Shown in pieces: positions 5,799-18,228 of a DNA stretch of 64,000 bases. Positions within the stretch are counted from its first letter, which is position 1, and every line of letters starts with the position of its first letter. Source of the stretch: a virus. Under the pieces are notes generated by a model, which did not search any database, was not told the origin of the DNA, and saw only the letters and a program-made list of their open reading frames with translations. The stretch spans positions 152,297 through 216,296 of the IMG/VR virus record IMGVR_UViG_3300037245_003526, one strand, 5' to 3'. A program made the translations under genes and the position numbers.

Positions 5799-6227
5799 AT
5801 GGGAATAAATATAACAGTAGACGGAAAAAGAATATCAATAGCTGGAAATAAACCAAATATATTACATAATTTTAAAAATTTTTTTGGTAGTATGTTATAT
5901 AAAGATTTTGAAATTAAAGATACTGAAATAGACGAAGTTCTTGATAAAACTGTAGAAGAAGTTCCTGAGGTTTATAATGATATAAAGAAAGATATCAAAG
6001 TAGAAACTTCAAAACTTATTGATGCTAATCTTATTAAAGAATGTATTGAAGATTATGATATAAGGGAAATAGTAAAAAGAGAAATAGCTCAAAAGATTTT
6101 AAAAGTTATATTAAGAGATGCTGAAGATTTAGTTGAAAATGCTTTAGATGATTTTGAGGGTGATAGTGATACACATTGGGAAATACAAAAATTTGTAAGG
6201 AATACAATCATAGGTTCATTTAAATAA
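5799..6227 (+). CDS. hypothetical acidic protein
   Basis: ORF with RBS. Confidence 0.4.
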   Translation: MGINITVDGKRISIAGNKPNILHNFKNFFGSMLYKDFEIKDTEIDEVLDKTVEEVPEVYNDIKKDIKVETSKLIDANLIKECIEDYDIREIVKREIAQKILKVILRDAEDLVENALDDFEGDSDTHWEIQKFVRNTIIGSFK

Positions 6228-6244
6228 TTACTTGGAGGTAAATA

Positions 6245-6388
6245 ATGAAAACTTTATTTTTTTTAGCTCTTTTAAAATTAATAGTTTTATTATTTATCCT
6301 TACTACAGATTACAGTTTATTCAGTTATTATTCAAATAATGTAATGACTTTTTTTAAGAGTTATTATAATAAAATACTTAGAACATAA
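6245..6388 (+). CDS. small hydrophobic ORF (~47 aa), doubtful
   Basis: RBS GGAGG present, but the 3' end contains the promoter-like motif that precedes tRNA-Asp. Confidence 0.2.
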   Translation: MKTLFFLALLKLIVLLFILTTDYSLFSYYSNNVMTFFKSYYNKILRT

Positions 6389-6397
6389 TATAAATAC

Positions 6398-6471
6398 GGA
6401 GTATTGGTGTAATGGTAGCACAGTAGATTGTCGATCTACTAATAGGGGTTCGATTCCCCTATACTCCGCCA
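6398..6471 (+). tRNA. tRNA-Asp (anticodon GTC)
   Basis: acceptor GGAGTAT/ATACTCC, anticodon loop TTGTCGA, T-loop TTCGATT, CCA. Confidence 0.85.
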
Positions 6472-6500
6472 ACTTAAATTGTGAAAGGAAAAAAAGAAAA

Positions 6501-6764
6501 ATGACTTATTCTGAAAATTATGAAAAAATGGAAGAGGATGCTAAATTTGTATTATCTTATCTTGAAAAGAAAAATCAAGGCGCTCCTACTTATTGTAAGA
6601 GTGTTTTACTAATGGCTCATAATATTGCTAAATTTAAAGAAGATCTTTGGATAGAAGAAATAAGACAAAAACAATTTGAAGCACAGCAAGCAGAGCAAAT
6701 GCAAAAACAAATGGAATCAGTAGCACAATCTGAAGAAGAAAAAACTATTGAAATAGAAAAATAA
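6501..6764 (+). CDS. hypothetical protein
   Basis: ORF with RBS GAAAGGAAAAA. Confidence 0.4.
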   Translation: MTYSENYEKMEEDAKFVLSYLEKKNQGAPTYCKSVLLMAHNIAKFKEDLWIEEIRQKQFEAQQAEQMQKQMESVAQSEEEKTIEIEK

Positions 6765-6769
6765 AAAAT

Positions 6770-6857
6770 GGCGAGGTGGCGTAATCTGGGATCGCAGTAG
6801 CTTGCTAAGCTATCCAGGGTAAAACCTGTCTCGGTTCAAATCCGGGTCTCGCCGCCA
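6770..6857 (+). tRNA. tRNA-Ser (anticodon GCT), class II
   Basis: anticodon loop TTGCTAA, long variable arm CAGG-GTAAAA-CCTG, T-loop TTCAAAT, CCA. Confidence 0.8.
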
Positions 6858-6865
6858 TAAAATAA

Positions 6866-6955
6866 CGCGGTGTCGAGTAGTGGTTAGCTCACTGGGCTCA
6901 TAACCCAGAGTTCTTTAACGAGAGCACGGGTGTTCGAATCACCCCACCGCAACCA
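6866..6955 (+). tRNA. tRNA with anticodon CAT (Met/initiator-like) carrying an unusually long variable arm
   Basis: anticodon stem CTGGG/CCCAG (three G-C pairs), loop CTCATAA, C1:A72 mismatch, 19-nt variable arm with stem GTTCT/AGAGC, T-loop TTCGAAT, CCA. Confidence 0.5.
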
Positions 6956-6960
6956 TATTC

Positions 6961-7034
6961 GGCGAGGGGTCGTTGGTGACCGGTTAGAGCTCATATCTCT
7001 GATTAGGTGAGATCGTCACTCACACTCGCTACCA
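6961..7034 (+). tRNA. tRNA-like element, possible CAT-anticodon tRNA (Ile2/Met?) with a non-canonical D region
   Basis: acceptor GGCGAGG/ACTCGCT (6 of 7 bp), anticodon stem-loop TAGAG-CTCATAT-CTCTG, T-arm GTGAG-ATCGTCA-CTCAC, ACCA tail; D-arm irregular. Confidence 0.3.
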
Positions 7035-7037
7035 GAT

Positions 7038-7139
7038 GACGAGTGACTTATACATTGTTAAATGGGCAGAATTAGCTGCTGGGTACCCGTAAAATCCACT
7101 CATGGATTGAGCAGAAATTTCGCGTATAAGTCACTCGAC
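7038..7139. repeat. structured element bounded by a 16-bp imperfect inverted repeat (GACGAGTGACTTATAC ... GTATAAGTCACTCGAC)
   Basis: terminal inverted repeats with 1 mismatch enclose ~70 nt containing nested stems (CTGCT/AGCAG; ATCCA/TGGAT; GGGTACCC palindrome); no ORF. Confidence 0.45.
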
Positions 7140-7158
7140 CAAATTTAATGGTGAATAT

Positions 7159-7485
7159 ATGAAAGTATTTTGTGATAATTGTGAACATTTTGATTCTAGA
7201 CATGCTATGTATGAAAAATGTTTACATCCAGAAAACCAGAAAGTTGTAGAAATAAAAGAAACATATTCAACACCTAAAAGTAGTTATAAAACATCTGAGT
7301 TTGATCCGTGTCAACTAAATTCAGAAAATGATTGTAAATGGTTTGAACCTAACCTAACAAATTATTTACATATTAAATTAACAAATTTTTTAAAAAGAAT
7401 TATGGTCGCATCGTCTAATGGCAAGGACAAAAGATTTTCGATCTTTAAATCGGGGTTCGATTCCCCGTGCGACTACCAAAAATAA
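7159..7485 (+). CDS. Cys-rich hypothetical ORF; its 3' part overlaps tRNA-Glu, so it may be spurious or shorter
   Basis: CDNCEH..C N-terminus looks protein-like, but the last ~80 nt coincide with a well-formed tRNA. Confidence 0.2.
   Translation: MKVFCDNCEHFDSRHAMYEKCLHPENQKVVEIKETYSTPKSSYKTSEFDPCQLNSENDCKWFEPNLTNYLHIKLTNFLKRIMVASSNGKDKRFSIFKSGFDSPCDYQK
7404..7478 (+). tRNA. tRNA-Glu (anticodon TTC)
   Basis: acceptor GGTCGCA/TGCGACT, D-stem GTCT/GGAC, anticodon stem AAAGA/TCTTT with loop TTTTCGA, T-loop TTCGATT, CCA. Confidence 0.65.
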
Positions 7486-7498
7486 TGAAAGGTGAATA

Positions 7499-7705
7499 AT
7501 GGCAAAGGAATTAGAAATTCTTGACTTTTATAAGAATAAGAAAAACGGACAGTTATATAAAATTATTGATTTTGTAATAAATTGTACTAATGAACAAGAC
7601 GGTCAACATATGGTAGAATATGTTAAAGTTAGTAATAATGAAACTCAAGTTTTTGTAAGAGAAATAAAAGAGTTTTGTGAAAAATTTGAGTTTTATGAAG
7701 ATTAA
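7499..7705 (+). CDS. hypothetical protein
   Basis: ORF with RBS AAAGGTGAATAATG. Confidence 0.4.
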   Translation: MAKELEILDFYKNKKNGQLYKIIDFVINCTNEQDGQHMVEYVKVSNNETQVFVREIKEFCEKFEFYED

Positions 7706-7710
7706 ATAAT

Positions 7711-7795
7711 GGGGGGTTCGCATAGCGGCAATTGCGTCTGGCTGTAGACCAGATACCTTCGGGTTACCCAGGTTCGAGTCCTGGATCCCTCACCA
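7711..7795 (+). tRNA. tRNA-Tyr (anticodon GTA), bacterial-type long variable arm
   Basis: acceptor GGGGGGT/ATCCCTC, anticodon loop CTGTAGA, variable arm ACC-TTCG-GGT, T-loop TTCGAGT, CCA. Confidence 0.8.
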
Positions 7796-7814
7796 TTTTT
7801 AAAAGAGGAACAAC

Positions 7815-8180
7815 ATGAAACCGGAATTAAAATTATATTCACCTCCAAGTTACAAGAGACTTACACCTGAAGCAAGAGATGAAATAGTAAATGGATGTGG
7901 AGCAGCTAATGCTAGGTTTGATTTTATTCCTGATAAAATTTACGGATTGGATATTTCAGAAGCTTGTAATATTCATGATTATATGTACCACATTGCTGAA
8001 TCAACAAACGAAGCGAAGATAGAAGCTGACAGGATATTTTTAAATAACCTACTCCGAATTATTGAATTTTATACTACATCATCTGTATTAAAAAAATTAC
8101 GAAGATCACGTGCTAAAAAATATTATAAAGCTGTTAAAGCTTATGGTGGACCTGCTTTTTGGGAAGATAAAAACGAGTAA
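7815..8180 (+). CDS. hypothetical protein
   Basis: ORF with RBS. Confidence 0.4.
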   Translation: MKPELKLYSPPSYKRLTPEARDEIVNGCGAANARFDFIPDKIYGLDISEACNIHDYMYHIAESTNEAKIEADRIFLNNLLRIIEFYTTSSVLKKLRRSRAKKYYKAVKAYGGPAFWEDKNE

Positions 8181-17373: not shown

Positions 17374-17973
17374 ATGAGAATTAATTTGAAAAGATTATTA
17401 GATAAGAAAGATGTAATTAAGAATGGTCATTTTCAACTAACATCCGGTCGTCATTCTGATACTTATATTAATAAGGATTCAATTTATTGTATTCCTGAAT
17501 TATTTGAATTAATAATTTTAGAAATGTCCTTAATAATAAGGAACTCTTTTCATTATGACATAATTACAGGTCCAGCAATAGCAGGTGCTGTTTTAGCTGC
17601 TCCAATTGCTAACTCTCTTTCTACTATATTTATTTATCCTGAGAAGGTTCAATTGTGTTCACTTGATTACGAAGTTGTAGATGAAGAAATGCAATTCAGA
17701 AGAGGATATGATAAAGTTTTAGAGAATAATATTAATGTTGTAATAGTTGAGGATATAATAACTACTGGAAAGTCAGTAGAATTGACAACTGAAGCAATTG
17801 AAAAACATGGTGCTCAAGTTAGTGGTATAGTATCAATATGGAATAGGACTGGATGGAAAACAGATAAGTGTTCAACAGTATCTTTAATAGATGAACCAGT
17901 TGAATCTTGGGATCCTGAATCATGTCCATTGTGTGTTGAAGGTATTCCATTACAAAATCCAAAAGAATTATAG
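17374..17973 (+). CDS. pyrE: orotate phosphoribosyltransferase-like (type I PRTase)
   Basis: GHFQLTSGRHSDTYIN resembles the OPRT N-terminus; VVIVEDIITTGKS is a PRPP-binding motif. Confidence 0.55.
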   Translation: MRINLKRLLDKKDVIKNGHFQLTSGRHSDTYINKDSIYCIPELFELIILEMSLIIRNSFHYDIITGPAIAGAVLAAPIANSLSTIFIYPEKVQLCSLDYEVVDEEMQFRRGYDKVLENNINVVIVEDIITTGKSVELTTEAIEKHGAQVSGIVSIWNRTGWKTDKCSTVSLIDEPVESWDPESCPLCVEGIPLQNPKEL

Positions 17974-17985
17974 AAAGGTTTAAAA

Positions 17986-18228
17986 ATGTCAGATTGGTTT
18001 GTTTATAATAATAAAGTTTATAATAGAAGTGTATATGAAAGATTTGGTATAGTTAAAAGAGATCCAAAAACTTATACTTATGAATATTATGTTGAAGCAC
18101 GAAATAAAAGAAAATCATCTGATATTAAATTTGGATTTGAATCTTATAGAGAGGCAAGAAATTTTTTAATAGAAAGAATATTTCCAGATTGTAATATCAC
18201 AAATTTAATAAAGATAAAGGAGAAGTAA
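17986..18228 (+). CDS. hypothetical protein
   Basis: ORF. Confidence 0.35.
   Translation: MSDWFVYNNKVYNRSVYERFGIVKRDPKTYTYEYYVEARNKRKSSDIKFGFESYREARNFLIERIFPDCNITNLIKIKEK

Follow-up and report, generated by a model that had tools for sequence, protein, structure and literature searches.

An initiator-type tRNA with an inserted long variable arm, recurrent in large uncultivated phages

The window analysed here, a stretch of 64,000 nucleotides (nt) of viral DNA (IMG/VR virus record IMGVR_UViG_3300037245_003526, positions 152,297 to 216,296), harbors at positions 6866-6955 a tRNA gene with the anticodon CAT, in which the features of a bacterial initiator are combined with a stem-loop in the variable region. 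This gene represents a new architectural variant of initiator tRNA which is recurrent in large uncultivated phages. Taken as a whole, we consider it reasonably probable that its product is a working phage initiator, built from a class-I body and a selectively maintained inserted hairpin for which a steric shield is the most likely role. To our knowledge, all described initiators possess a variable loop of 4-5 nt, and initiators are treated as uniformly class I. A long-arm initiator tRNA was not found described in the full-text literature searched.

The gene reads CGCGGTG TC GAGT AGTGGTTA GCTC A CTGGG CTCATAA CCCAG in its first half and continues after CCCAG with AGTTCTTTAACGAGAGCAC GGGTG TTCGAAT CACCC CACCGCA A CCA. 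ARAGORN reports exactly positions 6866-6955 as a tRNA-Met(cat) of 90 nt with a five-arm cloverleaf. The Rfam tRNA model aligns with 53.9 bits (gathering score 29, E = 8e-9 over the whole window), whereby 16 nt of the variable region are treated as an insertion and the 1:72 pair is marked as non-standard. The minimum-energy and the centroid structure calculated by RNAfold both depict the five-arm cloverleaf (-34.1 kcal/mol, 60% of the ensemble), with a folding energy that none of 200 shuffled sequences reaches (z = -3.71). Furthermore, a covariance model of long-arm initiator tRNAs from other phages (R1, an 8-sequence subfamily) scores the gene with 70.7 bits. The individual parts are as follows.

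6866..6955, + strand: initiator-type tRNA gene, anticodon CAT, 90 nt with encoded CCA, complete (ARAGORN, Rfam, fold)
6866..6872, + strand: 5' strand of the acceptor stem, CGCGGTG, with C1 mismatched opposite A72 and G2 and C3 paired with C71 and G70
6875..6890, + strand: D arm with a stem of 4 base pairs (bp), G10-C25, A11-U24, G12-C23 and U13-G22 (ARAGORN, minimum-energy fold)
6892..6908, + strand: anticodon arm CTGGG-CTCATAA-CCCAG, with CAT at 6899-6901 in the 7-nt loop 6897-6903
6909..6927, + strand: variable region of 19 nt, comprising A44, a 6-bp hairpin, and then an unpaired A and C48 (ARAGORN, fold)
6928..6944, + strand: T arm GGGTG-TTCGAAT-CACCC (ARAGORN, Rfam alignment, fold)
6945..6955, + strand: 3' strand of the acceptor stem, CACCGCA, followed by A73 (6952) and CCA (6953-6955) (sequence, ARAGORN)

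The D loop of 8 nt, AGUGGUUA, contains A14, G15 and a GG dinucleotide assigned to G18G19, and the acceptor and T stems comprise 7 bp (mismatch included) and 5 bp, respectively. Within the anticodon stem, the consecutive pairs G29-C41, G30-C40 and G31-C39 are found in the sequence, by ARAGORN, in the Rfam alignment and in the fold. The extra stem GUUCUU/GAGAGC is formed by positions 6910-6915 with 6920-6925 and is closed by the loop UAAC (6916-6919); its pairs are, in order, G-C, U-G, U-A, C-G, U-A and U-G.

An earlier note on this DNA, which was made from the letters alone, had described a CAT tRNA that combines initiator-like features with a long variable arm, atypical of Met or Ile2 tRNAs, and all tests run support that description. 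The three G-C pairs closing the anticodon stem that it had pointed out are present (CTGGG/CCCAG at 29-31:39-41), as are the C1:A72 mismatch, flagged as non-standard in the Rfam alignment, and the 19-nt variable arm at 6909-6927. The extra stem, given there as 5 bp, has to be corrected to 6 bp around UAAC, four of them Watson-Crick and two G-U. An alternative class-II fold with a Leu, Ser or Tyr anticodon was sought and none was found; ARAGORN, Infernal and the minimum-energy fold all place CAT in the anticodon loop.

Judged by its sequence, 6866-6955 very probably has a functional initiator identity. In addition to the features mentioned above, it carries the initiator determinants G2:C71, C3:G70, A11:U24, A73 and an encoded CCA, and none of the other 20 tRNAs of the window has a mismatch at 1:72. 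When the hairpin is left out of the comparison, the tRNA matches E. coli tRNAfMet at 57 of 76 positions, elongator Met at 48 and Ile2 at 43. The only initiator sequence feature from which it departs is the class-I variable loop of 4-5 nt.

In E. coli tRNAfMet, the 1:72 mismatch, G2:C71 and C3:G70 are the determinants of formylation by methionyl-tRNA formyltransferase, with A11:U24 as a minor one. The mismatch additionally keeps this tRNA off EF-Tu and away from peptidyl-tRNA hydrolase, and the three G:C pairs 29-31:39-41 direct it to the 30S P site. In the phage tRNA, the CAU anticodon, A73 and the acceptor stem would be recognised by the host methionyl-tRNA synthetase (MetRS). The 1:72 mismatch together with G2:C71 and C3:G70, and to a minor extent A11:U24, would then allow formylation by methionyl-tRNA formyltransferase. 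By the same mismatch the molecule would be kept away from EF-Tu and peptidyl-tRNA hydrolase, and its G:C pairs 29-31:39-41 would send it to the 30S P site.

It is highly improbable that the gene encodes something other than an initiator, namely an elongator Met, a lysidine-modified Ile2, or a class-II tRNA of the Ser, Leu or Tyr type with a CAU anticodon that is charged with another amino acid. Such an assignment could invoke the long arm, which is the main recognition element of SerRS, as well as A73, which is the discriminator of tRNA-Leu, too, and the fact that 6866-6955 is the only CAT tRNA within the window. Moreover, class-II tRNAs with non-cognate anticodons do exist, as in the nematode nev-tRNAs (PMC3333845) and the allo-tRNAs (PMC5389517). 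Against it, the 1:72 mismatch, G2:C71, C3:G70, A11:U24 and the three G:C pairs are all of the initiator type, SerRS needs G73 where the phage tRNA has A73, and the stems are 7/5, neither 8/4 nor 9/3, with a D stem of 4 bp. Two unpaired nt follow the extra stem on its 3' side, where phage Ser and Leu tRNAs have one, the Levitt pair is G15:C48 as opposed to the A15:U48 typical of E. coli tRNA-Leu, and the hairpin-less sequence is closest to tRNAfMet.

Four specific candidates were rejected. Ile2 is ruled out by C1:A72, by GGG:CCC, and by 43 of 76 identities to E. coli Ile2 versus 57 of 76 to tRNAfMet; a Leu, Ser or Tyr tRNA by CAT, A73, the 4-bp D stem and the lack of an alternative fold; and an allo-tRNA or a tRNA-Sec-like molecule by the 7/5 branch, which is not 8/4, 9/3, 8/5 or 9/4. 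An intron-containing tRNA was likewise set aside, as what has been added is a simple hairpin of 16 nt within the variable region, although no search aimed at a bulge-helix-bulge motif was made. The archaeal intron-bearing initiators encountered in the genome scan described below differ from 6866-6955 by longer inserts and by A1:U72.

Long-arm initiators are a recurrent, phage-associated class and not a one-off. The pattern GGGCTCATAACCC-N18-40-GTTCRAAT, which was used to scan IMG/VR contigs and cellular genomes, is found in 61 IMG/VR contigs, in which ARAGORN detects 58 CAT tRNAs of at least 82 nt, and a subfamily-specific pattern yielded 15 further metagenome loci. Correction of the ARAGORN start positions and removal of duplicates left about 50 distinct sequences (53 in the structure-aware alignment), which stem from viral and metagenome contigs. 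G2:C71 and C3:G70 are invariant in all 53 of these initiator-like tRNAs. The 1:72 pair is non-Watson-Crick in 41 of them (U:U in 21, C:U in 8, C:A in 6, others in 6) and A:U or U:A in the remaining 12. A11:U24 is present in 35 of the 53, and A73 in 42 of 50. Such retention of initiator features argues that these molecules work as initiators, since a decoy or a pseudogene would not need them. As a separate peculiarity, all eight distinct members of the L006/L183/L187-type initiators (alignment A2, columns 65:81) have U opposite C, a conserved mismatch, at the first pair of the T stem (49:65), and 1:72 is never paired in the same eight members.

With one genome per species (185,579 species), at least 120 loci match the pattern, and among the matches listed only two are phage-like, both of them on short multi-tRNA contigs. 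Almost all of the listed matches are archaeal intron-bearing initiators, normal bacterial initiators with a chance downstream match, and small internal duplications. A megablast search with about 45 concatenated long-arm initiators gave no full-length match in 50,697 deposited phage genomes. The cultured phages examined, namely Bxz1-like mycobacteriophages, Cellulophaga phi4:1 and Caulobacter RB23, carry ordinary 74-nt initiators.

The sole deposited phage found with a long-arm initiator is LR756501 (L200), an uncultured phage of 735 kb, in which a 91-nt long-arm initiator is followed by an adjoining normal-length initiator-like tRNA. A normal and a long-arm initiator are found side by side in L012, L044 and LR756501. 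In the last of these, whose record is without annotation, positions 1501-1765 contain three consecutive CAT tRNAs. The first, the long-arm initiator of 91 nt, combines C1:U72 with a T loop of unusual sequence (TCCGAAT), the second is the initiator-like tRNA of normal length with U1:U72, and the third has 73 nt, C1:A72 and a weaker anticodon stem.

The comparison within this class demonstrates, with high confidence, that the extra arm is real and under structural selection. In the 8-sequence subfamily nearest to 6866-6955 pairing of the extra stem is complete (100%). Both partners vary at two of its five pairs, and five pair types are seen at a single pair. The covariation score of the whole structure in this subfamily is not reached by any of 500 shuffles, and the signal is abolished by sliding the partners. 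In the 53-sequence alignment, the inner three pairs of the extra stem are 88-96% paired with six pair types each, values which are favored by an alignment that was itself fitted to the structure. GNRA tetraloops cap 21 of 50 arms, compared with about 3% expected by chance. Across the long-arm initiators the arm spans 12-22 nt and its sequence varies widely, some arms consisting of 2 bp and a GNRA tetraloop.

The junction of the arm with the tRNA body bears on its origin. Counted 3' of the variable stem, phage Ser (47) and Leu (51) tRNAs mostly have one unpaired nt and Tyr tRNAs have three; long-arm initiators mostly have three, 6866-6955 has two, and other long-arm class-I tRNAs have two to four. 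The two to three unpaired nt, the 4-bp D stem with A11:U24 and the retained C48 together indicate that the hairpin was inserted after position 44/45 of a class-I loop. Hence, 6866-6955 is a class-I body with an inserted compact hairpin and not a remodelled Leu, Ser or Tyr tRNA.

Variable arms are remodelled more widely in the tRNA arrays of phages, the long-arm initiator being one instance. Within the window, three further tRNAs with class-I anticodons carry a long arm.

19686..19771, + strand: tRNA-Gly(UCC) with a long arm, 86 nt, U73 (ARAGORN, Rfam 57 bits, five-arm fold z -3.5)
23660..23747, + strand: tRNA-Lys(UUU) with the long arm GGAAC-AUA-GUUCC, 88 nt, A73 (ARAGORN, five-arm fold z -3.4)
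24321..24406, + strand: tRNA-Cys(GCA) with the long arm GUC-GAAA-GAC, 86 nt, U73 (ARAGORN, Rfam 54 bits, hairpin in fold)

In all three, which adopt five-arm folds, the discriminator matches the anticodon, and their arm sequences are unrelated to one another and to that of the initiator. With Rfam, the Lys(UUU) tRNA attains just 27.3 bits (threshold 29), as its extra arm GGAACAUAGUUCC resembles a T loop and is taken for a T arm. As it thereby falls below the Rfam threshold, it illustrates that long-arm class-I tRNAs are easily missed in annotation.

Across phage arrays, long arms occur on 37 of 405 class-I tRNAs (9.1%) where the initiator is long-armed, versus 11 of 354 (3.1%) where the initiator is normal. 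By isoacceptor, they are most frequent in Ile-UAU (42%), Asn-GUU (26%), Thr-UGU (16%), Cys (14%), Trp (12%) and Lys-UUU (10%), and none were found in these arrays among Ala, Phe, Gln, Arg, Thr-GGU/CGU and Lys-CUU. Decoders of ANN codons are enriched for long arms (odds ratio 2.6, p = 0.0014). Ile-UAU is long-armed in 5 of 12 cases versus 1 of 44 for Ile-GAU (p = 0.001), the loci not being phylogenetically independent.

In five arrays from freshwater or marine metagenomes (L183, L187, L190, L192 and L195) one anticodon is present in two architectures per array, examples being Thr-UGU of 73/85 nt, Asn-GUU of 73/87 nt, Ile-GAU of 75/86 nt and Leu-UAA of 85-86/74 nt. Nearly identical extra arms were also observed across isotypes, namely GACGAATAGTCCA in a Thr-UGU (L006) and an Asn-GUU (L034), and GGTTAATACCCAC in a Thr-UGU (L277) and a Trp-CCA (L021). 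Such similarity hints that arms have been swapped from one tRNA gene to another, or that they are subject to a common constraint.

As to the role of the arm, ribosomes handle class-II tRNAs in every site, and MetRS is a class-I synthetase; such enzymes approach their tRNA with the variable region facing the solvent. The extra arm should therefore be tolerated by the ribosome and by MetRS. We propose that the arm would act as a steric add-on which makes the phage tRNA refractory to tRNA-targeting nucleases or toxins, enzymes which attach to the anticodon stem on its 3' side and to the D-loop face of the tRNA. The variable region of a folded tRNA generally has the 3' strand of the anticodon stem on one side and the D loop on the other. 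The PARIS nuclease AriB, which targets exactly Lys-UUU, Thr-UGU and Asn-GUU, cuts between C40 and A41 and contacts U16-U17 of the D loop with its second subunit (PMC12409363). An extra hairpin in the variable region, positioned between these two contacts, could thus block such enzymes, and the three AriB targets are among the isoacceptors most often long-armed in phage arrays. A role of the arm is also favored by the roughly threefold higher frequency of long arms on class-I tRNAs where the initiator is long-armed, and by the phages mentioned above that have a normal next to a long-arm initiator.

Phage tRNAs are known to escape nucleases through mutations in the anticodon loop, and for the initiator-specific VapC-LT2 phages have been reported mostly to avoid encoding the target tRNA (PMC10264068). 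The anticodon stem-loop of an initiator is fixed by its function, and a shield would consequently matter most for this tRNA. An anti-nuclease role of the arm is put forward here as a tentative proposal. More doubtful still is its extension, according to which long arms on class-I phage tRNAs would constitute a general, unrecognised anti-defence device that blocks nucleases and toxins of the AriB or VapC type. The affected tRNAs would be the initiator, Lys-UUU, Thr-UGU, Asn-GUU, Ile-UAU, Cys and others, all of them retaining their use by synthetases and ribosomes, and the arm may be the only escape route available to the initiator.

Several observations weigh against the main reading as a whole. 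We know of no nuclease that is blocked by a variable arm, and the long-arm Lys, Thr and Asn variants also have changes in the anticodon stem that could alone explain resistance. The isoacceptor bias is borderline for Thr-UGU versus GGU/CGU (p = 0.064), with loci that are not phylogenetically independent. The extra arms share no conserved sequence, and some comprise only 2 bp and a tetraloop; a merely tolerated insertion would look alike. No orthologue of 6866-6955 from a close relative of the phage was found, so that conservation is seen at the subfamily level only. Among the approximately 50 open reading frames (ORFs) of the window that were scanned with Pfam and PHROGs, which comprise genes of nucleotide metabolism, replication and structure, no recognisable tRNA-related protein was found.

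Arms are also lost in phage arrays. There, 36-50% of the Leu-TAA, -TAG, -CAA and -GAG tRNAs are shorter than 82 nt. Some 30 distinct tRNA-Leu sequences of phages measure 74-79 nt, a length typical of class I, which suggests that gain and loss of variable arms may be fluid in phages. Short tRNA-Leu are seen, for example, in L006, L052, L228, L255, L287 and L291. In Ser and Tyr tRNAs of the arrays the arm is kept in 90-100%. LeuRS does not need the long arm, whereas the Ser and Tyr synthetases do, and the different fates of the arm fit this independence of LeuRS. Finally, tRNA-Met(CAU) is not cleaved by AriB (PMC12409363).

Two other explanations accept a functional initiator and differ with respect to the arm. 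The chief rival, less likely than not, is that the arm has no role of its own and is a tolerated insertion which is kept folded as a compact hairpin to spare the L-shape. In a tRNA, insertions are tolerated in the variable loop alone, the tRNA genes of phages are fast-evolving, and the arms differ in length (12-22 nt) and sequence down to minimal 2-bp GNRA hairpins. Structural maintenance by itself would be expected to yield GNRA caps and compensatory changes as well, many hairpins look like the generic C-GAAA-G type that Leu tRNAs contain, too, and the reverse change, giving class-I-length tRNA-Leu, is common in phages, while Ser and Tyr retain the arm. A passive insertion is less readily reconciled with the recurrence of the arm in many unrelated initiator subfamilies and its near absence among the listed cellular-genome matches (at least 120 loci). 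Likewise, gains cluster by genome (9.1% vs 3.1%) and by isoacceptor rather than by amino acid (Ile-UAU 5/12 vs Ile-GAU 1/44, p = 0.001), and normal and long tRNAs with the same anticodon are retained within one array.

Improbable, in our view, is a function of the arm as a handle for a phage-specific partner, be it a factor, a processing enzyme or a nuclease that spares marked phage tRNAs, by which a partly private initiation or tRNA pool would arise. The clustering of long arms in genomes, with four class-I tRNAs in the window and 9.1% vs 3.1% across arrays, would fit such a handle, and large phages encode translation factors and remodel host tRNA pools. Against it stand the lack of a shared arm motif, even within one genome, and the lack of any tRNA-binding, nuclease or translation-factor domain among the about 50 window ORFs scanned. 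Since these cover only 64 kb of a genome of roughly 245 kb, the absence of a partner protein is weak evidence.

The source of the window is, as judged from its genes, a large, distantly T4-like, uncultivated phage. The window comprises about a quarter of the roughly 245-kb genome; one of its proteins sits on a JGI contig of 244,552 bp. ARAGORN detects 21 tRNA genes, all on the + strand between 4.2 and 26.6 kb, which are interspersed with genes for NAMPT, NT5C, a phosphoribosyltransferase, orotidine monophosphate (OMP) decarboxylase and a radical-SAM protein. After this region come a family-B-type DNA polymerase, a DnaB-like helicase, a portal protein, a T4-type prohead protease and a gp23-type major head protein. 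Identity to known phages is about 24% for the head protein and about 29% for the DNA polymerase, and the GC content of the phage is about 30%. The T4-type gene content, the low identities and the genome size of about 245 kb lead to the assignment given above.

The immediate neighbor of the initiator gene is found on the same strand, 8 nt upstream.

6770..6857, + strand: tRNA-Ser(GCU) (ARAGORN, Rfam alignment)

Both genes are probably co-transcribed. No convincing promoter or terminator was found between them, the single 'terminator' match being the anticodon arm itself. In a search for close relatives of the phage, positions 6000-8000 of the window gave only matches at the level of tRNA-Glu in a blastn search of 50,697 phage genomes, a neighboring 367-aa protein has no relative in IMG/VR, and a D-arm-specific pattern has 0 matches there. 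Homologues of the adjacent 142-aa ORF are found only on contigs of 0.7-3 kb, the best being L322. This contig carries a relative of the window gene at 5799-6227 (85% identical) and, at 1516-1682, a Cys/His-rich ORF (MSDKIECPFCKKSFCKHGIKGH...), putatively endonuclease-like, in the place of the tRNA-Ser and the initiator of the window. This ORF may be an insertion of the homing-endonuclease type, and the replacement of the tRNAs suggests turnover of the tRNA island between close relatives.

All 20 standard tRNAs of the window have a genome-encoded 3' CCA, the exception being a tRNA at 26513-26587 with a CUA anticodon (amber suppressor), which is labelled Pyl by ARAGORN. Genome-wide recoding of TAG, to which this tRNA could point, was rejected: ORFs under the standard code are compact, 10 of 52 long ORFs terminate with TAG, and reading through TAG fuses no large ORFs. 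There are a few candidate read-through extensions of TAG, for example 17374-17973 joined to 17986-18228. A block on the minus strand at 26680-33386 stands out by a GC content of 0.34-0.37 versus about 0.30 elsewhere and by cargo that is unusual for a phage, namely a TerB-domain protein, a membrane protein resembling Na/Ca exchangers and a 936-aa protein with a Major Vault Protein shoulder domain (E = 7e-20).

The existence of long-arm initiators implies that a large appendage is presumably accommodated by the initiation machinery, be it by MetRS, the formyltransferase, IF2/IF3 or the P site of the 30S subunit. Tagged or orthogonal initiator tRNAs could be built on them as a natural scaffold. 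Considered jointly with the Lys, Thr, Asn, Cys and Gly tRNAs that also bear long arms, they raise the possibility that phages remodel tRNA architecture, and not only anticodon loops, against tRNA-targeting immunity.

In comparison with known systems, 6866-6955 shares with bacterial tRNAfMet (E. coli metZWV/metY) the CAU anticodon, the 1:72 mismatch, G2:C71, C3:G70, A11:U24, the three G:C pairs, A73 and TTCGAAT. The same initiator features are found in ordinary 74-nt phage initiators, as those of the Bxz1-like phages, phi4:1 and RB23. In contrast to described initiators with their variable loop of 4-5 nt, it has 19 nt there, including a 6-bp hairpin. This stem-loop between the anticodon and T arms resembles that of the class-II tRNAs (Leu, Ser, Tyr and Sec), being of similar length and in the long-arm class often GNRA-capped. 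Unlike these, 6866-6955 has the anticodon and identity of an initiator and a D stem of 4 instead of 3 bp, and long-arm initiators have two to three unpaired nt 3' of the stem versus one in phage Ser and Leu tRNAs, so that the arm looks inserted.

A long arm in combination with an anticodon other than Leu, Ser or Tyr is also known from nev-tRNAs (PMC3333845) and allo-tRNAs (PMC5389517), some of which are located in phage tRNA clusters. Contrary to 6866-6955, whose identity matches its anticodon, these have retained the identity of a Ser or Leu tRNA (through G73/U73 or Leu determinants) and would mistranslate or regulate, and allo-tRNAs have branches other than 7/5 (8/4 or 9/3), whereas 7/5 is found here. 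With the tRNA-Lys, -Thr and -Asn of phage T5, which counter PARIS AriB (PMC11464382, PMC12409363), the long-arm tRNAs have in common that they are altered phage copies of host tRNAs. Avoidance of a nuclease is something we infer for the latter. Escape variants known so far, among them those with altered anticodon loops (PMC10264068), differ by point substitutions that fall in the anticodon stem-loop or the D loop, whereas the device proposed here would be a whole extra arm.

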